Source: a virus (lineage: Duplodnaviria > Caudoviricetes). Taken from it: 64,000 bases of DNA. The stretch spans positions 12,964-76,963 of IMG/VR virus record IMGVR_UViG_3300037424_001593, one strand, 5' to 3'. The notes under the pieces are model-generated. The model was not told the origin of the DNA. It was given only the letters and a program-made list of their open reading frames with translations, and ran no database searches. The position numbers and the translations under genes are program-made. Shown here in pieces: positions 6,508 to 60,186 of this stretch (its first letter is position 1; every line of letters starts with the position of its first letter).

Positions 6508-8721
6508 TCAGCGTGTTCGCTTGGCGAACAGCGCAAGGCCGCCCGCGAGCAGCAGACCGCCGCCGATGAACATCCAGGGGATCGAGCTCGATCCAGGCAC
6601 CACACTCGGCATGGTCGCCGCCTGCGCGATCGCGTTCTGCAGATCGAGCGGCGTCGGCATCGGCGTAGGCGTGCTACCGCTCGCCGTAGGCATCGACGAG
6701 CTCGTTGAAGTCGTCGCAGCATCCCCGCTCGAGGTGATGATGGGCAGCGAGCTCGGGCTCGACGCAAGTGCATTCTGATTGAGCGCCACCGCCGTGATCA
6801 CAGGATTCGCAACGACACTGCCATCCGCCGCAGGCGCGAGATTCGGCTGCACCGTCACCGTAGTAACGGCTTGCTGCCCACCCATCGCGAGCTCACCTGT
6901 GATGTGTGAGAGCGCCGTGATGAGCGCGGCTGGAAGCGAGCCTCCGCGGTCGAACGTCGCACACGGCACGTCGCTCAGCGTGCGCAGCACGAGCGGCTGC
7001 ATCACATCCGCTTTGTTGCCTGCCTTCTTCTTGCGGCGCATGGCAACAAGCGACGTGATGCCTGTTGCAAGCGTCGTTGCCGCAAGCGTGACACCGAGTG
7101 CGATCGGGTTACTGCTCGCGACCGCAGTCACTGCGCCGCCCACCTGCAGAATCGTCTGCTGTGCAGCCTGCGCTTTCGCATCTACCTGCGCCTGAGCAGC
7201 ACCGACCTGATACTCTTTCGCCTCGTCGATACTGAGGTCGATCAAACCGCGTTCGGCCCAGTATGTGACGTGATTGCTGATGTACCAGAGCGTCGCGTTG
7301 ATCGTGTGGTCCGCGAGACTCGTCTCGAGGATGGAACGAATCCAGCCCTCTGCCATACGGGCTGCGCCGTAGATGGACGTGTACGTGTACCACTCGTAGT
7401 CGTCCTCGCGGACAACGCGCGCTTCCCAACGACGCCACACGAACGTCGTATCTTCGGGATTACTGTGCAGGCACTGTTGATACCAAAAATGCCACGCACC
7501 CGAACGCAAATCGTTTTTGATTTGCGTCGTTGTACGGTCGGTCGGCATCAAGTTCTGTGGGCGAACACGATCAGACTCATTGCCCAGCATGTCGTTTGCG
7601 GTCCGCGAATCGTATTGCGGCGCGAAGTCACCCGTGAGCCAGCCCGTCGGCCCATCTGCGTCGTAGAAACCCATCCACAGAGGGCCCACAAAGAGCTTCG
7701 TGACCGTGCGGTCGATGTGCTTGAGCCACGGATCCTTGGCGACTTCCTTGTCACCGTAGTCCACGGGTTGCGGCGCGCCGCGGAGCTCGTTGAGCACGCT
7801 CTGCATGAGCGGCGGGAGCGCGCGATCCGGCAGCAGCACACCCGGCTTGCCGTCCGCATCCGTCATCGTCGTCGTCGGGTTCGCGGGCAGCAAAAACTGC
7901 GGCTGCACATTCGTCGCGAAGTACGCGAGCGAGACCCAGCTATAGACGATCGTGAACCAGTCGGCGGTGAGCCGCGATGCGTACTCGCGCTCGACGCTGC
8001 CCATCGGCATCGAGAGCCCGCTGTACGCTGGCTTGACGACGAGAAGTTGCGCGAGCGCTTGCTGAGCTCGAGCGTAGATGTCCGCGCGGATGCCGACACG
8101 CGCCGTGTTCTCTGCACTGCACGGAAGAAGCGCCGACGGATACTGGATCATCGCCCAGGTCTGGATGTCGGCCTTGAACTGCTGTGCCCCGTCAGGGAAA
8201 AGCTGAGGCTTGACGAGCGTCGCGACGGTGTCGTTGAAGCTCGCCGTGTACGCATCGACGACACCGCGCGCCTGCACCGTCTGCGCGTCGTACGTGATCT
8301 TCGTCACGTCGCGCGTTTCGGTGGGCGCCACGATCGTCGTCATGAGCTGGTTCGCGTTCGAGATGTTCTGTTGCGCCTGTGCGCTGAACTTCGCCGCGAG
8401 ATCTGCATCGCCGCTCTTCTGCGCACTCGCAGCAAACGCTGCCGCCGCAGCAGCAATCTTCACCTGCTCTTCAGCCTTCTGCTGAATCAACGCTGCTGTA
8501 GGCGAGCCTGTTTGCGCAGTCGCTACGACCTGCGCACGCGGCGCGCTGTACGTGTTCATCGCCGTACCCGCAGCAATCGCCGCTTGCTGTTGTGCAATCG
8601 CTTCTTGCCGCGCCGCTTCTGCAGTCTTCTTCGCTGCCTCTTTCTTGCGCCGATCGCGCGGAAGACCGAGACCCGCACCAAGCCCGTTCGCACCCTTTGG
8701 TGGAACGATGCGCGCTTGCAC
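6508..8721 (-). CDS. Large membrane-anchored virion protein (about 737 aa; probable GTG start at 8721)
   Basis: N-terminal ANGLGAGLG, Ala/Gln helical region, internal hydrophobic hairpin, C-terminal TM plus KRTR; ORF-track extension to 9240 overlaps another gene. Confidence 0.65.
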   Translation of the reverse strand: MQARIVPPKGANGLGAGLGLPRDRRKKEAAKKTAEAARQEAIAQQQAAIAAGTAMNTYSAPRAQVVATAQTGSPTAALIQQKAEEQVKIAAAAAAFAASAQKSGDADLAAKFSAQAQQNISNANQLMTTIVAPTETRDVTKITYDAQTVQARGVVDAYTASFNDTVATLVKPQLFPDGAQQFKADIQTWAMIQYPSALLPCSAENTARVGIRADIYARAQQALAQLLVVKPAYSGLSMPMGSVEREYASRLTADWFTIVYSWVSLAYFATNVQPQFLLPANPTTTMTDADGKPGVLLPDRALPPLMQSVLNELRGAPQPVDYGDKEVAKDPWLKHIDRTVTKLFVGPLWMGFYDADGPTGWLTGDFAPQYDSRTANDMLGNESDRVRPQNLMPTDRTTTQIKNDLRSGAWHFWYQQCLHSNPEDTTFVWRRWEARVVREDDYEWYTYTSIYGAARMAEGWIRSILETSLADHTINATLWYISNHVTYWAERGLIDLSIDEAKEYQVGAAQAQVDAKAQAAQQTILQVGGAVTAVASSNPIALGVTLAATTLATGITSLVAMRRKKKAGNKADVMQPLVLRTLSDVPCATFDRGGSLPAALITALSHITGELAMGGQQAVTTVTVQPNLAPAADGSVVANPVITAVALNQNALASSPSSLPIITSSGDAATTSTSSSMPTASGSTPTPMPTPLDLQNAIAQAATMPSVVPGSSSIPWMFIGGGLLLAGGLALFAKRTR

Positions 8722-50708: not shown

Positions 50709-51172
50709 TCACCGCGGGACCTTCCGGCGCGCTTTCTTGCACGCCTTGCGCGCGACGGAGTAGGCGATTGCGAGACACTGCGCGCGGCTCTTGTCGGTGC
50801 GGCACAAGCACTCGCGCACGTTCTGCGTGAACGCTTTTTTCGTGCAGCGCTTCGTCATCCGCTTGCGGACTTTCGCGCAGCGCTTTTTCTTGCGCGCGAC
50901 GCCTTCTACACCGCACGAGCAGGCCATCACTTCCTCCTGCGACGACGTGTGACGCCTGAGACACCGCGATCACGTTTGGACGCAGTGCACTTCATCCCAC
51001 CACTCGCGTAGTGATAGCACATGCAGTTGTAGCCGAGATTTTTGATGCGGTTGCGAAGGGCGTCGGCGGTGACGCGAAGCTCCTTGGCGGCCGCCTTGCG
51101 CGTCTCGTGCTTTGCTTCGAGAAGCAGCGTTGTTACGACCTTGCAGACTTCGTTGGCCTCACGCTTGTTCAT
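50709..51172 (-). CDS. Two small basic proteins (50709..50927, 50927..51172)
   Basis: Lys/Arg/Cys-rich; KAF.QNVRE...AQCLAIAYS. Confidence 0.55.
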
Positions 51173-51912
51173 CGCTTCTTCCTCTTCTTCCCCGCGCCGG
51201 AGAGATCTTTGTGCGCGCCGCACTGCAGCGCGTAGATGGGTTCGCTGACCATGATTTCTTCGCTGCCACGCTTCTCGAAGCGCTTGTACGCGCCCGCTGC
51301 GACAGCGCGACCCTTCTCATGCTGCTTCTTCCAGAACGCGTTCGAGGCGCTGTCCGGGAGGCGCAGGTACGAGACGAGCGGCTCGCCCGCTTCGCACGCG
51401 TCTTTTGCGGCACGTTCGTAGAGCTTCGTGCCGTAGCCCTTGCGCTTGTTCCGCCCGTACGTCTCGATCGAATCCACGGTGCGAATGAACGGGAGCGACG
51501 TCAACGCCTTCGCGCATTTGCGTGAGTGGCCTTCGCGGCATGCGTCCTTCGTGGGCTTCTCGCGCGTGACGTACATCTCGCTGACGACGTCTTCTTCCTC
51601 GCCGTCCGTGCATGTCATCCAGTAGTAGGTCTGGTTGCCGACCGGCATCGCGTGCACTTCGCACTGCTCGAGTGCGCCGAAGCCCCGCCCCTTGCGCCGA
51701 CGCATGCCGTTCAGCGTTGGGAGATCCGCGTGCTCGTCCTCGCCGTAGTCGAGCGTCGGGAGGTCACGCGTGTGTTCGTCCTCTATACGTGGCGCTTGAT
51801 CGCGCGCGAGCGACGACACGCAACGGTAGTGCGCAGGGACGAGCACGCGCCGTCGTCCGTCGCACGCTACGGGCTTCGGGCCTTCTAGGGCGGGGGATCG
51901 ACGCTTCGGCAT
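51169..51912 (-). CDS. GNAT-family acetyltransferase with N-terminal extension
   Basis: VDSIET...KRKGYGTKLYERA (motif A); GRGFG in leader. Confidence 0.65.
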   Translation of the reverse strand: MPKRRSPALEGPKPVACDGRRRVLVPAHYRCVSSLARDQAPRIEDEHTRDLPTLDYGEDEHADLPTLNGMRRRKGRGFGALEQCEVHAMPVGNQTYYWMTCTDGEEEDVVSEMYVTREKPTKDACREGHSRKCAKALTSLPFIRTVDSIETYGRNKRKGYGTKLYERAAKDACEAGEPLVSYLRLPDSASNAFWKKQHEKGRAVAAGAYKRFEKRGSEEIMVSEPIYALQCGAHKDLSGAGKKRKKR

Positions 51913-51914
51913 AG

Positions 51915-52091
51915 GAGGTAGCTACCTCTCTTCTTATCCCACGAGGGGTAGCTACCTCCCCCGTTGCTACCAGGTAGCTACTCCAGGGCGGCAGGGTAGC
52001 TACCTAATATGTAGGTCTTTATCCCACATATGTATTACCTATAATAGGTCATACCTTTTCTTCTGTCAGTAAAGAATATATTTACTGACGG
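51915..52091. promoter_or_regulatory. Palindrome-rich control region between divergent late (left) and early-type (right) genes
   Basis: GGTAGCTACC x3 plus 2 degenerate, late motif at 51932, ACCTAT-A-ATAGGT, GTCAGTAAA-N7-TTTACTGAC. Confidence 0.7.
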
Positions 52092-52265
52092 CACGTCTCA
52101 CTAGGGTACGAACGAAAGGGACACGAGACACAGCACACGCGGGGGCGAGCCTCGCGATCACGCGACTCCGGCAACGGCGGACCCGAATGCGTCGGTTCGA
52201 TCACGTGCCCCGTGCAGCCACTCTGCACGGACGCTAGCGGTTCATTGACATTCTAAGGAAACAAA

Positions 52266-55200
52266 CGATCGCGAAATGCGTGTCGTGCGCGAGCTTCGGT
52301 TCGCGCATCACGCGGAGGTCACGATCATGATGAAACCTGAGTACACGAACGAACCGTTCGTTTGGTACGACGAGCATGGCGACTGCGTAAGCATCCCCGC
52401 GGACGTGGCGAACACGCTCCCAGAGGGCACCGAGTACTTCGCGTACGAAACCGGAAAGTGGTTCGCTCGCTTGTCGGCCCGCGGGTACCTCGACTCGACT
52501 GATTGGTCGGGCCCGTTCGACACGATCGAGAAAGCGAAAGCGCACATCGTGCGCGTGTTCGAGGTGGACGCCGAAACCGGCGACGAGCTTCCCAACGACT
52601 GATCGCAGACTGCGGCCCTTCCACGACACCGTGTCGTGCATCGGGCGGAGGATACGATCCATGGTCAAGTATTTCATCGTCTACGATGGAGCCGTTTACG
52701 GCTCACGAGACACGCTCACCGACGCAATCTGCGAAGCAGCGCGGGAGGCGCAGACCAACCCGCGCAGGCGTTCGGTGAAGGTCGAAACCCAAACATGGGA
52801 CGGTGAGCGCTGGGTGCTCAACAGCACGGAAGACCTGCTCAAAGCCAGCTGCACGCGCGGCGCAAACTACAACCACGTCGCCTTTCGGTGATCGCAGACT
52901 GCGGACACCGCACGCGTCTCTCGTGCGATGCGCGGAGGATACGATCCACATGCCGAGGAGGAAAAAGAAAACAGTCACGACCGTGATTCACGTGGTTCTA
53001 GGCTTCGACACACGTGCGGTGTGCGGCGTAGCAATGCGCACTCCAAGCGGGACACCGCTCAAAGACTGCGGGGCCGCAGTGGCATCGCGGCAAGCGGCGC
53101 GCGACATGTTGCGGTTCATGGCCGATAGGGGCCACGACTACGCCATATGCACTACCTGTGAAGCAAAGAGTTGATCGCAGACTGCGGACTGCACACGAGA
53201 CATCGTGTGTAGCGCGGAGGATACGATCCATGAGTGATACGCTAACCGTCAAAGTCGAGATCGACGTGCAGCTCATTTGCGGCATGCTCGACTCGGGGAT
53301 CGAACAAGGGATCCGCTACTGGGCGCGCGACGTCCGCCCCGCAGGCTCGTCTGAGCAGTCGCTCGACGCGTGCCCCGCAAACTGCACGCTGCAAGCGTGG
53401 TACGCAGTCACAGGGCACGAGACGCGCGAGCACACGACGCTGATCGAGCACGGTGGCGAAGGCCTCGCAGTCGAGCACGTGCTCACGCACGAGAAGATCA
53501 TGCAAGGCCTCGCGCGCTTCGTGAAGCGCTATCCGCGGCGCTTCGGACAAGCGCTCTCGGGTCGATGGGACGCGGAGGACGGGGACGTCCTGATCCAACT
53601 CTCGCTCTTCGGCGACACGCTCAAATACGGCTGATCGCGCACTGCGGCGCGCACACGAAGATCGTGTGCGAGGCGGAGGATACGATCATGGCAGACACAT
53701 TCGTGCGGTTCTGCGGTTCACTGCGGATCACGCTCAAGTACAACGACAAGCCCGAAATGTGCCGCTTACAATCCGGGCCGTTTAGCGCAGCTGTGTATTC
53801 GCCTGCGACATACGATGTCCGGATCTTCGATCGCGACAACGGCGCAACGTGGGAAGGCAACGTCCGCCTTCCTGCGGCGTGGTCGAAAGCGACCGACTGT
53901 CGTGAAGCAATCACGGCGACTGCGCGTGCGGCGATCGGCTTCGCAGGTAGCGAAGGGTTCAACGTCGAGGGCGCCGAGCACGGCGAGGACGACTACGTCA
54001 TCACGGGTAAGGCCTTGTACGCGCCCGTTCCGTTTTGATCGCGCACTGCGGTTTCGTGTCGAGCACGCTCGACGCGTAAGCGGAGGACCCGATCATGGAC
54101 GACGATGAAAAATGCTGCTGTTGTGCGGCGTGCCACGACGGCCCACGGGACGCGTATTGCTGCCCCGGGTGGTTCGTGAACGCGGAGACGAACGAGATCG
54201 AGCGTTGCGACGAATGCGCGCTCTTCGCGACAGACGACGATGCGATCGCGCACTGCCGTAAGTGGAGCTTGATCCGAGAGGAGGATACGATCGATGCGAT
54301 ACCGTGTGGCAATCCTTACGGCGCCTAAAGAGGGCGCACCCAACTTCAACGATGCGATGCGTCGCGCGTTCACGCTATCTGGGCAAGGTCTGCTCACGCT
54401 GGAACGTGCGCACCACGACAACCACTTCGAAACGTTTGACGCGGCAGCGAAGTTTGCTGCTGTGATCAACGCGCACGATCCCGACGCGCAAACGAGGCTC
54501 CTCGTTTGGGGTGTCTACACGAACGAAGCGATCGGAACGACGCCTGACGGTTCCACGGCGTGGGGCCCTGCGAGGCTCGCATGAACCGGTATCGCATCGA
54601 GTACACGGACGCGGACGACCCTGGGTGCCCCATCTTCACCACGCACGTGCGCGCCGTGGACAAGCTCCACGCGGAGGAGCGCTTCTTCGATAGCGACGAT
54701 CAAGCCTGGAAAATCGTCTCTATCGCTCGCGTGGATGAACGAAACAAGTAAATAAACTGCTGCGACAAACGTCAGTAAATACAGGAAGGGTGGCAAGCAT
54801 GACGAACGAGAACGAAGAAGCGGTGAGTTACTCCGCGTATTGGAGAAGCGTGGAGCAGTCCGCGATCGAAATCGTCGCGGACGTCAAGAAGGGCGTGTGC
54901 ACCGACGTCTACGATCGCATCCACGAAGAGTGCGACGGATCGTTCTGGGTCATCTACACGCACGCCGCGATGGCGACGCTTCGCCACTCGCCGAACGACG
55001 ACGCCATCTTCGAGGACGGCAACGGGATCGAGGGCGCAACGTCGATGTCAGACGTCTACACGCGCGCCGCGTTCTGGGCGCTCCAAGCCGACATCACGGA
55101 GAAGGTGACGGAGCTTCAGGCGGAGCTAGAGGAAGCGACGGCGGAGGAAGAGTGATCGCGACCTGCGGCCAGTGCTCGATATCTCGAGCCCTGAGCGGAG

Positions 55201-55959
55201 GACACGATGAATAGGATTTTTCTCGCAGCGCTTCTTGCGCTCACCGGATGTGCGTCGGCCGAACGCATCTTCGTCGGCGAAGAGCTTGTGCCTTATGCGC
55301 AGGCCTCGGCAGCGTGCGACGCGTACGGGGCGTCTCTCGTGACGCTCGAAGACGCGAGCCCGCAAGATATCTTCGACGCGTGGCTTGCATCGCCCGTAGA
55401 TGCCGACGGCGTGTGGATCGGCGAGACGCTCGTGGGCGTCACGGGCGCGCTTTACGGCTATGCGATGATCCGCGGCGGAGGGCTCGTGCCCGTCGCCACG
55501 AACGACACCACGCACCTCGGCTTGCCGGTGTGCGTAACGCCTGAGTGATAGATACGGACTGCCCCCGGAGACCATGAGCATGAACATCACCCACAACGGC
55601 GTCGCCACTCTCGGCCACCTGTGCGACAGCAACACCACGGCGCGCCTCCGAGCCGCGACGATCGAGGAACACGACGAGTCTATCTACGCAGGCGCAGAGG
55701 GACACATTCTTGCTGTCTCGTATCGTGTTGCCCCCGAGGGCTGCACCGACGCGGATCGCTTCGATCGCGCAGGCAAGGGCAAATGGTTCGCGACGGAGCA
55801 AGAGGCGATTGATGCTGCATCGTTGCTCGATGCCATGTGCCCTATCGAGGATGGCGAATGGAGCGTCTACCGCGTCGAGCACCGCGCCTACGTAGAGGAC
55901 TAATCCTGCCCTGCGGCTCGTGCTCGACTTCGGTGGAGCGTGAAGCGGAGGACACGATG
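52266..55959 (+). repeat. Intergenic hairpin repeat family, 8 clear copies plus 1 degenerate
   Basis: (T)GATCGC(A/G)NA(C)TGCG-variable palindrome-GCGGAGG(A/T)(T/C)(A/C)CGAT(C) at 52266, 52600, 52889, 53172, 53632, 54036, 55153, 55901 (weak left arm); degenerate 54243. Confidence 0.9.
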
Positions 55960-56394
55960 CCCGAGTTCACACACGGTCCGGAGACGGACTTCAACTGCGA
56001 CTACTGCTTCGAGACGAAGAACAAGCACGTGCCCGCGCGTGTGCGGATCCTGTCATCGGATATTCCTGACGACGGGAACCCGCCGACCGACGACCGCGAG
56101 TACACGTACGCGTGTACGGACTGCGCGATCGTGCACGGACACGTCATCGCGGTAAAGGCGCACGGCGTCTACAGCGTGAACGACGTCTCGTGGTTCGAGA
56201 CTGCCGCAGGGCGTTTCACCGTGGGTGACATCGTCCGCGTACGCTCGATCGCGCGCCTCGGTACGGGCGCTGTGCTCATCCGTAAGATTCACGTCGAGCT
56301 CAGCGGCGCCGTCAACGTGACGGTGTGGCCTCTCGGCGAGCACGAGAACGCCTACGCGATCGTCAGCGGTCGCTTCATTCGAAAGGACGCGTGA
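52327..56394 (+). CDS. Array of about 12 small unrelated ORFs (52327, 52661, 52950, 53230, 53688, 54095, 54294, 54581, 54799, 55207, 55574, 55957 starts)
   Basis: Most starts lie 0-3 nt after the repeat right arm containing GGAGG. Confidence 0.75.
55207..55548 (+). CDS. Lipoprotein with C-type-lectin-like pattern
   Basis: LALTGC lipobox; YAQASAACDAYGASLV...VWIG...CV. Confidence 0.5.
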   Translation: MNRIFLAALLALTGCASAERIFVGEELVPYAQASAACDAYGASLVTLEDASPQDIFDAWLASPVDADGVWIGETLVGVTGALYGYAMIRGGGLVPVATNDTTHLGLPVCVTPE

Positions 56395-56397
56395 CCT

Positions 56398-56877
56398 GTG
56401 GACGACTTCGAACGGCTCTTGAACCGTGAGATGAACGACGCGGAGCATGAAGCGGCGGCGGACGCTGCGCTTCAGGTCGAGGAAGACTACGCGCTCAACC
56501 TCGGCGGCTATCCCGTCTTCTCATGCGAGTACGCGACCGCGTACGTGACCACGCTCGAGAGCTCCGGGCGGATCTCCGCGGGCAAGTACGCCACCGTCGG
56601 GCAGTGCGTCGCGTTCGCGCTCGCCCACTCAGCGCTCTTTCTCGAACGCCTTCGCGCGGACGGACCCGTGCGCGCGTGCACCTCGCTCAAGGAGCTCAAC
56701 GACACGCTCACGGCGTGCGCGCTCGTCCCCCATCGCGTGCACACGAAAAGCTTCCAAGGCACGCGGCTTACCGTCGTGTCCTTGCGCCGCGGAGAGCGCG
56801 TTGAGGAAGGCGTCGGCGCAGAGCTTAGCGACGCGTTCGCGATGGCTATTCGCGCGTTCGAGAGGCCGGCAGCATGA
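56398..56877 (+). CDS. Hypothetical protein
   Basis: Coherent ORF between array and recombinase. Confidence 0.5.
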   Translation: MDDFERLLNREMNDAEHEAAADAALQVEEDYALNLGGYPVFSCEYATAYVTTLESSGRISAGKYATVGQCVAFALAHSALFLERLRADGPVRACTSLKELNDTLTACALVPHRVHTKSFQGTRLTVVSLRRGERVEEGVGAELSDAFAMAIRAFERPAA

Positions 56878-57051
56878 GCGACATCGACGTCTACACAAGC
56901 CGCACACGCCTTCGGAGCTTCGCGCTCTGGGCTGATCGGCGTGCGGCCGAGCTTGTTCGCGGCGCCGGGAAACCGAGCATCGCGACCCCCGAAGAGCTGC
57001 GCGCGTTCGCGGCCGAGTGTCGATCACGCGCTGCTGCGTTAGGCTAGTGCC

Positions 57052-57942
57052 ATGGAGCTCAACCCGGTCCAGCTCAAGTTTCGCGACACGCTCATCAAGG
57101 CGGGTTATCAGCCGAGCACGGCGCTCAGCTACGTGAAGGCGCTCGATCGCGCGTCGCGGGGTCTCGCCGAGAGCCCGATGGTGACGCCCGCCGCCTGCAA
57201 GCTCTGGCTTGCGTGGGCCGAGCATCCCCTCGAGCACAACTACACGCTCGCAGCGACGAACGTGCTCGCGGCGAACGACGAGGGACTCGACGGCATCAAG
57301 CGCCGGAAGAAGGGCGCGCGGAAGAACGTCGCGCGCTCCATCCCCGACGGGCAGTGGATCGAGCTCGTGGACGCGTTCGCGCGCGGCGTCGAGGTTGAGG
57401 ACGCCGTCCTCTACGTGCTCGCGACGACGGGCCTGCGCATCAGCGACGTGCTCGGGGTGACCCGCGAAGCGCTCGTGCGCGGCAAGCGAAGCGGCGTCGT
57501 CGAGGTCTACGTGAAGGGTGGCAAGCTGCGCCGTCTTCCGTGGGCGGGCGCAGAGGAGGCGTGGAGCGCGCTTCTGGGTCGCCTCGACGCGTCTGCCACC
57601 GTTGCCGACGCGGTGACGGGCCTTCCGGAGAGCATCGCGGACGCGAACCACGCGGCCTATCAGCGCGTGCGCCGCAGGCTCCAGAGCTACAACGTCGCCG
57701 TCGCATCGAACGAGATCCGGCACGGGCAGCTCGGAGGGCTCGGAGCCGCTGCGCCCCTCGAGCGGATGTACCCGCATCGCCTTCGCCGTACGGTCGCCGT
57801 ACAAGCCCTGCGCGCGACCAACGACCTGATGGCGGTCAAGGAACTCCTCGGACACGAGGCGCTCTCGACGACTTCGACGTATCTTGATGAGGCCCGCCCG
57901 GACGTCGTGGCGGCGCTGCAGCGCAAGATTCGTGAAAAGTAA
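57052..57942 (+). CDS. Tyrosine recombinase (Xer-like size, no arm-binding domain seen)
   Basis: TGLRISD (R), VKGGK (K), HRLR (HxxR), LLGH (H), STYL (Y). Confidence 0.9.
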   Translation: MELNPVQLKFRDTLIKAGYQPSTALSYVKALDRASRGLAESPMVTPAACKLWLAWAEHPLEHNYTLAATNVLAANDEGLDGIKRRKKGARKNVARSIPDGQWIELVDAFARGVEVEDAVLYVLATTGLRISDVLGVTREALVRGKRSGVVEVYVKGGKLRRLPWAGAEEAWSALLGRLDASATVADAVTGLPESIADANHAAYQRVRRRLQSYNVAVASNEIRHGQLGGLGAAAPLERMYPHRLRRTVAVQALRATNDLMAVKELLGHEALSTTSTYLDEARPDVVAALQRKIREK

Positions 57943-58008
57943 ACGCGAAGATAAAAGTCGTGAACAAACAAGCACGACGACACGTCTCACAAACAGGTGG
58001 GTAAGACA

Positions 58009-58527
58009 ATGAAGAACAAGGCACTCAGCATTTTCCTACTGCTCAGCCTCGGTGGCTGCGCGGACAACGTCATCACCGTCGTCCCGGACACGGACGCGGC
58101 CTGCGGAACAACCGAGGACGCAAGCATGGAGCCCGTGACGCAGTGGCGCTGTGTCGGCACGATCCGCAACAGCCAGGGCGACGTGACCGGCTACGTGGAT
58201 AACACGGTGCCCGAGTACACCACGGTGGACGGCTTGCAAACCGTGCAAGCTGTGGATCTCGAGCTCGAGATCTCCGGGTGCAAGCTCGCGTTCCCGGTCG
58301 ATGACCATCTCGTGCGCGCATCTGGCCGCTTCGACGCGGAAGCACCAACGTGGACCGTGCTCGACAGCGAGGACGCAGATTGCGGGGACTTTCTCGGGTC
58401 CTTCACGAACCGAAGCCCGCGCGTCTGGCGTCCAACGCCGCTCGTGGACTCGCGCCTCTTCCTCGTCGAGGACTTCCGCTTCTCGGGCAGCGAGGCCGAC
58501 ATCATCTGCGCCCCGATCGGGGGTTGA
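58009..58527 (+). CDS. Lipoprotein
   Basis: MKNKALSIFLLLSLGGC lipobox. Confidence 0.7.
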   Translation: MKNKALSIFLLLSLGGCADNVITVVPDTDAACGTTEDASMEPVTQWRCVGTIRNSQGDVTGYVDNTVPEYTTVDGLQTVQAVDLELEISGCKLAFPVDDHLVRASGRFDAEAPTWTVLDSEDADCGDFLGSFTNRSPRVWRPTPLVDSRLFLVEDFRFSGSEADIICAPIGG

Positions 58528-58553
58528 CGCCGGCCTGCGGCCTTGCGTAGGAT
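58524..58553 (+). promoter_or_regulatory. Sigma70-like promoter feeding the long non-coding region
   Basis: TTGACG-N18-TAGGAT; spacer contains GGCCTGCGGCC as at 47187. Confidence 0.6.
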
Positions 58554-58555
58554 AG

Positions 58556-59068
58556 AGGTGTTCGGTCGTCTCACTCGCGATTGTAACTCCTCCCACCTGC
58601 AAGCGGCGGCACCTGACTTCGGTTACGTGACGCCCTTGCTCTTTCTGGAGGTCGCTCGTCCTCGAGAAAGTCCCCACGAACAACCGGACCCTAAGGACGT
58701 CGCTACGCGTCATGTCGGGTCGGGTCTAGTAGCGTAGATGTTCGTTGGGGCTTTCGCGGTGACGAGCCGTGTAGCCCGGTAGGTGTACCATGTAACCCCG
58801 TCGGCCCCCTGATGTACGTGAATGTTTAGATTTGTGCGTCGAGCCTGAAGAAGGCATTTGAGAACCTCCTCTACGAGGTGCGTCATGAAGAACTGAACTG
58901 CGGGTCGTGGCTCCCGGACCTATACGGGGCAACGTTGAAGCCTTGACGCATGCTGCGCGACGTTTTCTTTCCCTGAGGAATGAGCCTCGGAGAGGGGAGC
59001 CCACCAGGCGCCGCGCAGCAGCCGTCTCGACTTCAAACCCCAAGGCCTACCGGCCTACCCACAACACC
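58556..59068 (+). ncRNA. Candidate large (about 500 nt) structured ncRNA or leader
   Basis: Multiple nested long-range helices; no credible ORF. Confidence 0.6.
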
Positions 59069-59078
59069 CGAGGATACG

Positions 59079-59536
59079 ATGCACAGCACGAGGTACACCT
59101 TCGACGAAATCGCGATGAAGGGTCGCAGGGTTTGGAAGGACCCGACGACTGGCAAGCGCCGCACGCAGGTCGTGAAGTTCTTCCAAACCGTGAACCCGTT
59201 CAACAAGAACGCTGCGGGGTTCCCGAAGACGCGCGCCGAGATCTACAAGGAGCTCGGCGCAGAGTTTCACGCTTGGGTCGCTGCGGCGCCCGAAGGTGAG
59301 AAGCGCGAGCAGTGGGCATGACCCCGCAACAAGGCAGATTCTACGCCGAGCTCCACGAGCACGTCGCAGCGTGTCGGCGCGCAGCCGATCGCAACGATGC
59401 CGAGCTCACGAGCAACCTTCGCGTTGTAGCCTTCGAGGCTGCGCTTCGTGGCATCGCGCGAGGGCGCAAGGACGCGCGCACGATCGCGAAGATCGTCATC
59501 GACCTCGCGAGCATCGCGACACCGGGGTGGCCGTGA
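59079..59536 (+). CDS. Two small hypothetical ORFs (59079..59321, 59318..59536)
   Basis: RBS GAGGATACGATG; ATGA overlap. Confidence 0.6.
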
Positions 59537-60186
59537 ACCAAGCGTATCCGCTCGCGTGGCCTGACGGTTGGAAGCGCACCGAAGACTTCCGCCGTCAGGA
59601 CTCGAAGTTCAAGGTCACGCTCGCCGCTGCGTGCAGCGACCTCGTGAGCACGCTCCGCAAGCTCGGCGCGGTGGGCACCATCGTCGTCTCGACGAACATC
59701 CCCGCAGGGCGCCTGAACAGCGACGCTGCGCTCTACCCGAAGGCGAGCGCGGAGAAGAAGGTCGAGGACCCCGGCGTAGCGGTCTACTGGACTGTGCGCG
59801 AGGGCACGCACCGAACGCTCACCGCGAAGGTGATGGCGTGCGACTCGTGGCGCACGGTCCGCGAGAACATCCGCGCCCTTTGGCTGGCGCTCGAAGCCCT
59901 TCTGACAATCAGGCGGATCAAGGCGAGCGCTGTGTTCGAGCGCGCGTACAGCGCGTTCAACGTACTGCCCCCCACCGAGGAGGAGCAAGCGCCTCCACCC
60001 GTGAAGCGCTCGTGGCGTGAGGTGCTTGGCTTCACGCTCAAGGTCGCGACGCTGCACGACGTCAAGCTCGCGTATCGCAAGCTGTGCTTCATGCACCACC
60101 CGGATCTCGAGGGCGGGAACAACGCGAAGCAGGTCGAGCTCAACGAGGCATGGGAAGAAGCGAAGAAGGAGCTCGAGGACCAATGA
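59533..60186 (+). CDS. Phage J-domain (DnaJ C-terminal HPD) protein
   Basis: WREVLG...DVKLAYRKL...HHPD.EGG...ELNEAW. Confidence 0.85.
   Translation: MNQAYPLAWPDGWKRTEDFRRQDSKFKVTLAAACSDLVSTLRKLGAVGTIVVSTNIPAGRLNSDAALYPKASAEKKVEDPGVAVYWTVREGTHRTLTAKVMACDSWRTVRENIRALWLALEALLTIRRIKASAVFERAYSAFNVLPPTEEEQAPPPVKRSWREVLGFTLKVATLHDVKLAYRKLCFMHHPDLEGGNNAKQVELNEAWEEAKKELEDQ

Follow-up and report, generated by a model that had tools for sequence, protein, structure and literature searches.

In phage T7, an early precursor transcript of ~7 kb is processed at five RNase III signals, with cleavage leaving a protective 3' hairpin and being able to activate downstream translation (PMC3867540). The ideal RNase III substrate corresponds to 22 bp, that is, two helical turns, and internal loops direct the enzyme to single-strand cuts that leave stabilising 3' hairpins (PMC3867540). 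In Cluster K mycobacteriophages, a 13-bp motif named SAS (GGGATAGGAGCCC, with two mismatches at most) is found 3–8 bp before start codons, and imperfect 17-bp inverted repeats with a 4–13 bp spacer, named ESAS, lie directly upstream of the SAS motif and follow a consensus (PMC3203893); the function of SAS and ESAS is still untested (PMC12699233). The PeSL elements of T4-type phages combine a sigma-70 promoter with a terminator, and PeSL-mediated shuffling and mini-circles have been documented (PMC2839356, PMC4122927). The present analysis concerns an array of intergenic hairpins in an uncultured phage, studied in a window of 64,000 nucleotides that corresponds to bases 12964–76963 of the viral record IMGVR_UViG_3300037424_001593 (76,963 bp with direct terminal repeats, rated complete); coordinates given below for this phage are those of the window. 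The array is made of nine related units, which are most likely cis-acting elements of a polycistronic, presumably early mRNA and not DNA recombination sites.

The Repeat Units and Their Distribution

The nine units, eight intact and one decayed, all lie on the plus strand of a single operon, between positions 52266 and 55963. Each extends over ~60 bases, from the upstream stop codon through to the next ATG, thereby enclosing the ribosome-binding site, and in seven of the nine copies the stop codon itself opens the unit (six TGA, one TAA). A covariance model built from all nine units scores them at 51–73 bits, while the next match in the window stays below 14 bits, the reverse strand of the same sites aside. 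The first unit, u1 (52266–52330, 62.2 bits), forms the 5' leader of the first gene, has no upstream open reading frame, and is the strongest hairpin of the array (−36 kcal/mol), closed by a cUUCGg loop. Unit u2 (52600–52663, 71.1 bits) runs from the TGA stop of gene 52327–52602 to the ATG at 52661, and the following four units equally connect a TGA stop with an ATG, at 52950 for u3 (52889–52950, 69.5 bits), 53230 for u4 (53172–53232, 73.3 bits), 53688 for u5 (53632–53691, 72.9 bits) and 54095 for u6 (54036–54098, 72.4 bits). In u8 (55153–55213, 69.7 bits) the TGA stop of gene 54799–55155 is linked to the ATG at 55207, which overlaps the last pairs of the basal helix, and in u9 (55901–55963, 60.4 bits), which carries the second cUUCGg loop, the TAA stop of gene 55574–55903 is linked to the ATG at 55957. 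The decayed unit, u7 (54243–54296, 51.2 bits), has had its apical stem deleted and its stop codon lost; its fold is no better than that of shuffled sequence (z-score −0.1), and gene 54095–54328 reads through it to overlap gene 54294–54584.

The right arm of the unit, GCGGAGGAYMCGAT, gives 15 matches with up to two mismatches, against 2.4 expected, and the nine matches with no or one mismatch all fall in the array, on the plus strand, between 52312 and 55958. The left arm, TGATCGCNNNCTGCGG, is exact in six copies, has two mismatches in u7, and has no match within two mismatches in u1 and u9. An earlier note on this DNA had listed these nine copies, one of them as degenerate, and had described the left arm as starting in most cases with the upstream stop, the right arm as carrying the ribosome-binding site next to the following ATG, and two of the loops as cUUCGg. 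All of this was confirmed: the two copies not opened by a stop are u1, which has no gene upstream, and u7; the right arm contains GGAGG and ends 0–5 nt before the ATG; and the two loops are those of u1 and u9. A tenth right arm, devoid of hairpin, is located at 59067.

A motif scan of the whole 76,963-bp genome found no copy of the unit outside the array, and no Rfam family matches the units. The exact two-arm pattern returned two matches from IMG/VR, both of them chance occurrences inside coding sequence, and a looser version, too loose to be selective, returned at least 120 single matches each from metagenome and genome contigs, all in high-GC DNA, among which there was no array and no proper right arm followed by ATG. 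Within the array, arm variants cluster by position (u2–u4, u5–u7 and u8–u9), a pattern that indicates local growth or homogenisation of the array through duplication or gene conversion; units so related are possible substrates for homologous exchange of the PeSL kind. The sequencing runs listing the stretch comprise two DNA runs and no RNA run. Contigs of both are fragmentary over the region, those of one run consisting of long exact pieces without differences and those of the other only of short pieces of low identity, and no joint at or across a unit was seen among them. The only contig joint listed, from 56570 to 57137 (with a side of 21 nt), probably reflects cross-matches to sequence of other organisms.

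A Conserved Fold with a Preference for the Sense Strand

The units fold into three helices. In the basal helix, of 5 bp, GAUCG pairs with CGAUC; in the second, CU.GC pairs with GC.AG, a G-G mismatch included; and the third, the upper stem, has 10–12 bp. All internal loops are symmetric (4x4, 1x1 and 2x2) and there are no single-base bulges, so that each unit forms a near-continuous helix of ~28 steps, as counted by hand, like the strand preferences given below, from the folds and from a MAFFT alignment of the units in structural register. Eight of the units adopt the predicted fold, and in six of these the z-score lies between −2.2 and −5.2. In the alignment, 86.7% of the cells concerned are paired, against 28–47% for slid controls, compensatory changes affecting both sides occur at nine base pairs, and the observed covariation score was reached in none of 500 shuffles. 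The pairing of the arms with each other, proposed in the earlier note, is thus well supported, and it is under selection. The note had also described the middle of the unit as differing in sequence while always remaining palindromic. The strong covarying stem agrees with this; the variability is not complete, since a C-N-C-G-A / U-C-G-N-G core is kept in the upper stem (alignment columns 23–27 and 36–40).

The fold brings together the end of one gene and the beginning of the next. The bases that follow the stop codon pair with the downstream Shine–Dalgarno sequence and spacer to form the lower helix: the 3' strand of the second helix contains the GGAGG, of which three bases out of five are paired, and the spacer to the AUG is fully paired in the basal helix. 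In the folded RNA, the downstream initiation region is therefore masked. Several features indicate that it is the sense RNA that is favoured. The upper stems contain about seven G-U pairs when read on the plus strand, compared with one or two positions on the minus strand; cUUCGg, a stable tetraloop specific to RNA, closes two of the eight intact hairpins; every copy is oriented in the sense direction; and the copies carry a stop codon and a ribosome-binding site.

Hairpin Families in Related Phages

Homologues of the tyrosine recombinase encoded downstream of the array are present at 35–43% identity in several uncultured phages, and it was through this protein that three distant relatives with comparable operons, designated L244, L253 and L258, were found. 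Each has its own, differing family of long irregular hairpins between the small genes of the corresponding operon, and in two of the three a conserved leader or a conserved sequence from Shine–Dalgarno to ATG accompanies the hairpins. In L244 (a 55 kb contig), the gaps between the small genes upstream of the recombinase measure ~80 nt and hold, directly after the stop, an irregular hairpin of ~25–33 steps with 1x1 mismatches, followed by a conserved single-stranded leader that ends in ATG. Contigs of L244-type strains, which come from two or more studies, show differences in several gene calls and a constant gene order across the array. The gaps of L253 (69 kb contig) contain one or two long hairpins, some with UUCG loops, followed by a conserved GAAGGAGA..CCGCACC-ATG motif that occurs six to eight times; this phage and L254 are 100% identical over 3 kb and therefore uninformative on variation. 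In L258, a pair of tandem hairpins peculiar to that phage is found at two junctions. A search of related contigs with a covariance model, suggested in the earlier note, yielded one hairpin of L253 as a weak match (24.4 bits, E = 3e-4), with a GAUCG/CGAUC base and 28 steps, and the other hairpin families of the relatives proved different in sequence. These comparisons suggest a lineage-wide rule by which the sequence can change freely as long as the fold is maintained. Those proteins flanking the arrays that were compared between this phage and L244 are not homologous.

Two further phages, L248 and L250, encode a homologue of the recombinase and lack a repeat array: the operon of L248 is short and its hairpins are ordinary ones, and in L250 the recombinase gene comes after the genes for the polymerase and for a Dam methylase. 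Recombinase and repeats consequently do not travel together. As a side observation, the early operons of L244 (4262–5473), L248 (8234–9379) and L258 (648–1883) contain, upstream of the recombinase, a gene of the DUF932 family encoding ~400 amino acids; the Pfam match is weak in L244 and L248, and no counterpart was recognised in the array of the window.

A Model for the Function of the Units

A role of some kind at the RNA level is considered probable, and it had been one of two possibilities raised in the earlier note, as RNA processing or translation coupling; both the anatomy of the units and the comparative data fit it. On balance, and with more reserve, the units are taken to be processing sites of the RNase III type that would unmask a standard ribosome-binding site, possibly with translational coupling added. 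Each unit would in this model be a standard initiation module (GCGGAGGA-YMCGAUC-AUG) clamped by pairing with the post-stop bases (U-GAUCG ... CUGCGG). The double-strand-specific RNase III of the host would cut at the small (2x2) internal loop below the 12-bp upper stem, so that the upper hairpin would stay on the upstream message and protect its 3' end, and a leader of 15–20 nt with an exposed Shine–Dalgarno sequence would be released. Ribosomes that terminate at the stop codon within the unit would also open the basal helices, so that coupling could add to the effect at eight of the nine junctions. Cleavage and unmasking of the kind proposed are known from the T7 early sites and from the λ N leader.

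The dimensions and the placement of the units agree with this proposal. Their irregular helix of 28 steps, interrupted by internal loops, is longer than the ideal 22-bp substrate, and they are located between co-oriented genes downstream of a divergent control region. The first unit masks the first gene where there is no upstream translation to open it, which favours a trans-acting nuclease over pure coupling; T7 R0.3, located upstream of the first early gene, offers a parallel. In addition, the right arm alone serves as a ribosome-binding site at 59067.

Other observations weigh against the processing model or limit its reach. The hairpins of the relatives mostly leave the Shine–Dalgarno sequence unmasked, and its masking in the units may be a side effect of compaction. 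Between the two strands, the difference in summed fold energy is only modest (−240 vs −227 kcal/mol), so that the case for RNA rests on the whole pattern and not on energy. None of the sequencing runs in which the phage is listed is an RNA run, and a phage-encoded RNase III was looked for in the genome and not found. Finally, the CNCGA/UCGNG core of the upper stem goes beyond what RNase III alone would call for and hints at a sequence-specific partner.

Alternative Explanations

The junctions would also suit a pure translational coupler operating without cleavage, in which the hairpin joins stop and start and masks the ribosome-binding site, and in which a ribosome terminating at the UGA melts the basal helices, so that either this ribosome or a new 30S subunit initiates. 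In seven of the nine units the basal helix begins with a base shared with the stop and ends 0–5 nt ahead of the AUG, the Shine–Dalgarno sequence and its spacer pair with the post-stop bases, and the operon is otherwise tightly coupled, its unit-free junctions being ATGA overlaps or 3–4 nt gaps with the exception of 54752–54798 and 55549–55573, which have their own ribosome-binding sites. Coupling as the sole function is nevertheless regarded as unlikely, since the unit without an upstream open reading frame is the most stable of all, a selected 12-bp upper stem and a constant length of 28 steps exceed the needs of a clamp, and the leader is single-stranded beside the hairpins of the relatives. 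The conserved core and the near invariance of the right arm around GGAGG could instead point to a sequence-specific factor of the phage, be it an RNA-binding repressor or an endonuclease that shuts off early genes (compare T4 RegA and RegB) or a DNA-binding protein with a CACGA...TCGTG operator; T4 RegB cuts GGAG in early Shine–Dalgarno sequences. This explanation is held to be improbable, as the outer stem positions co-vary and leave no fixed half-site, which fits a fold and not an operator, no candidate factor was identified, and the relatives have unrelated hairpin sequences at the same places. Strong GC-rich hairpins after stop codons also bring to mind terminators or attenuators that lack a U-tract and would produce a gradient of transcription along the operon; U-tract-less terminators have been put forward for high-GC bacteria, a claim that is contested. 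Hardly any weight is given to this idea here: none of the units is followed by a T-run, a series of nine terminators would shut off the distal genes, the recombinase included, and the 3' arm is the ribosome-binding site of the next gene.

The remaining explanations place the function of the units in DNA. The earlier note had situated the array just upstream of a tyrosine recombinase and had proposed, as its other possibility, an integron-like cassette system served by this enzyme; in such a system, the units would be folded as single-stranded DNA and recombined by it. The recombinase (57052–57942, plus strand, 296 amino acids, PF00589) is generically Xer-like, and three genes and 1.1 kb separate it from the last unit, so it is less close than stated. 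It belongs to the same operon and has an intact catalytic set, the residues that are invariant in an alignment with 18 homologues including the expected catalytic Arg, Lys, His, Arg and Tyr, and the units superficially have the layout of attC, in that the outer and inner boxes are conserved, the spacer is unpaired and the terminal stem varies. Against the integron-integrase models (TIGR02249 / NF011946), however, the protein scores just 20.7 and 19.9 bits, with cut-offs of 265 and 435, the C-terminal catalytic motif alone matching, and its best NCBIfam matches are Xer models, all far under their cut-offs. Its gene lies on the strand of the array and downstream of it, is not divergent, and shows no attI/Pc arrangement. 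All units end in (T)GATCG and CGATC, RYYYAAC/GTTRRRY cores and extrahelical bases are absent, and the loops are all symmetric; attC sites fold on the bottom strand, and the G-U pairs favour the sense strand here. The recombinase homologues without arrays in L248 and L250 and the single gene order that the L244-type strains keep across their array, despite differing in several gene calls, speak against the proposal as well, and a 9-7-9 palindrome at the head of the operon (52065–52089) is a more conventional candidate for a core site. The integron-like proposal is accordingly held to be very improbable, and the same low standing is given to the variant in which the hairpins would be single-stranded DNA recombination sites of a non-integron phage cassette platform run by the Xer-like recombinase, doubling as RNA elements; if true, such a phage-borne platform would represent a second, independent invention of the integron principle. 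Homologous-recombination scaffolds resembling PeSL, serving the gain, loss and swapping of small genes and having only a secondary role in expression, seem a little less implausible, though still doubtful. The flanked genes are without known relatives, and the clustering of unit subtypes by position implies local duplication or gene conversion. On the other side, the units have neither promoter nor terminator, compensatory changes reflect selection on the fold itself, gene order is constant in the L244-type strains, and the collections searched hold no close relative that could show breakpoints.

The Early Operon and Its Surroundings

The phage is contained in two sediment metagenomes. Its sequence has a GC content of ~62%, and it encodes a UDG-PolA fusion, an SNF2 helicase and one tyrosine recombinase. 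No near-identical DNA was found in the phage collection searched, and no close relative was found in that collection or in IMG/VR; searches with the flanking 247-amino-acid protein, the DNA polymerase and two cargo proteins returned nothing nearer than the phage itself. For the DnaJ-like protein, the best relative has 69% identity and is sited on a contig of 662 nt.

The units part twelve small genes (52327–56394, plus strand) that encode 56–145 amino acids and start at 52327, 52661, 52950, 53230, 53688, 54095, 54294, 54581, 54799, 55207, 55574 and 55957; protein searches revealed no known relatives for nearly all of them. They are followed by two unit-free genes (56398–57047, plus strand), whose junctions with their neighbours, a 3-nt gap, an ATGA overlap and a 4-nt gap, are tightly coupled. 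The AT-rich gaps at 54752–54798 and 57943–58009 break the otherwise tight packing of the operon and may be internal promoters or ends of transcription units. Two small lipoproteins, with a signal peptide ending in a Cys lipobox, are predicted among the early genes, one inside the array (55207–55548, with a weak C-type-lectin-like match) and the other beyond the recombinase (58010–58527); they could act in superinfection exclusion or modify the surface.

At the head of the operon, a divergent control region (51913–52265) contains GGTAGCTACC palindromes, an AT-rich promoter zone and the 9-7-9 palindrome. The GGTAGCTACC palindrome occurs in four to five copies at 51917–52005, between gene 51169–51912, on the minus strand, and the early operon, and these copies are probably operator sites; an Rfam match to IhtA in the same interval is below threshold (29 bits, for a gathering score of 76) and likely spurious. 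The 9-7-9 palindrome at 52065–52089 is perfect (GTCAGTAAA-GAATATA-TTTACTGAC), a lone half-site of it recurs at 54771, and both L253 (~1607–1632) and L248 (~7827–7850) have, at the corresponding place, a palindrome of comparable layout whose centre is GAATAT-like or TGAATAA. The palindrome of the window could be a core site of the recombinase or an operator/promoter element.

The orphan right arm, GAGGATACGATG (59067–59081, plus strand), is the ribosome-binding site of gene 59079–59321 (80 amino acids) and has neither left arm nor hairpin. It ends a non-coding stretch of ~550 nt (58524–59081), located 3' of a sigma-70-like promoter (TTGACG-N18-TAGGAT), which would be either a long structured leader or a separate RNA. 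The next open reading frame, 59296–60186, with a DnaJ-like C-terminus (phrog_9210), probably starts near 59533, as its homologues have ~200 amino acids and align from residue 80 onward; this family is large, with 2116 cluster representatives at E <= 0.001.

Comparison with Known Systems

The layout shared with integron attC sites, in which each small gene is followed by an element with conserved ends that pair, a spacer without pairing and a terminal stem-loop that varies, with a tyrosine recombinase nearby, is not accompanied here by an IntI-type integrase, the core-site consensus, extrahelical bases or attI/Pc, and the sense-strand bias and the recombinase homologues without arrays are further differences. 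With the PeSL of T4-type phages (PMC2839356, PMC4122927), the units have in common that they are repeated intergenic stem-loops flanking small genes of unknown function in an early variable region and that they could serve homologous exchange. They differ in carrying a stop codon and a ribosome-binding site instead of a promoter and a terminator: no promoter-like site was detected inside any unit by a promoter scan, and a terminator scan found none at the units, where the hairpin is followed directly by ATG.

In design, the closest counterpart is the SAS/ESAS pair of Cluster K. Both systems place a conserved asymmetric motif containing the Shine–Dalgarno sequence just before the start codons of non-structural genes, in one orientation, with an inverted repeat of variable spacer immediately upstream, and each has the motif without a repeat as well, in the present phage at 59067. 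The motif itself is different (GCGGAGGAYMCGAUC vs GGGATAGGAGCCC) and is represented here by GCGGAGGAYMCGAT(C), 0–5 nt before the ATG; the inverted repeat of the units has 10–12 bp with a ~4-nt spacer and co-varies without a consensus; an outer helix pairs the motif with the upstream stop region; and the copies are clustered in one operon and not dispersed. The units may also help to explain the mycobacteriophage repeats.

The T7 early RNase III signals (R0.3, R0.5, R1, R1.1 and R1.3) come closest to the units in function and placement. Both sets consist of several related irregular hairpins with internal loops and helices of more than two turns, set between genes and including one that precedes the first gene; the genes belong to a single polycistronic early transcript in T7 and presumably also here. 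The two sets have no sequence similarity, and here the hairpin spans exactly from stop to start and contains the Shine–Dalgarno sequence, and nine copies are packed in 3.7 kb. Judged by sequence, the units belong neither with the T7 signals nor with SAS/ESAS. The array amounts to nine natural variants of one switch, a decayed copy among them, together with a hairpin-less copy of the ribosome-binding site, and so offers a ready mutational series for the requirements of an RNase III or coupling element. Should the RNase III model be correct, an uncultured sediment phage would share with T7 the strategy of cutting a long early transcript into stable, translatable pieces at repeated hairpins, each of which is joined here to a standard ribosome-binding site as well as to the stop codon before it.

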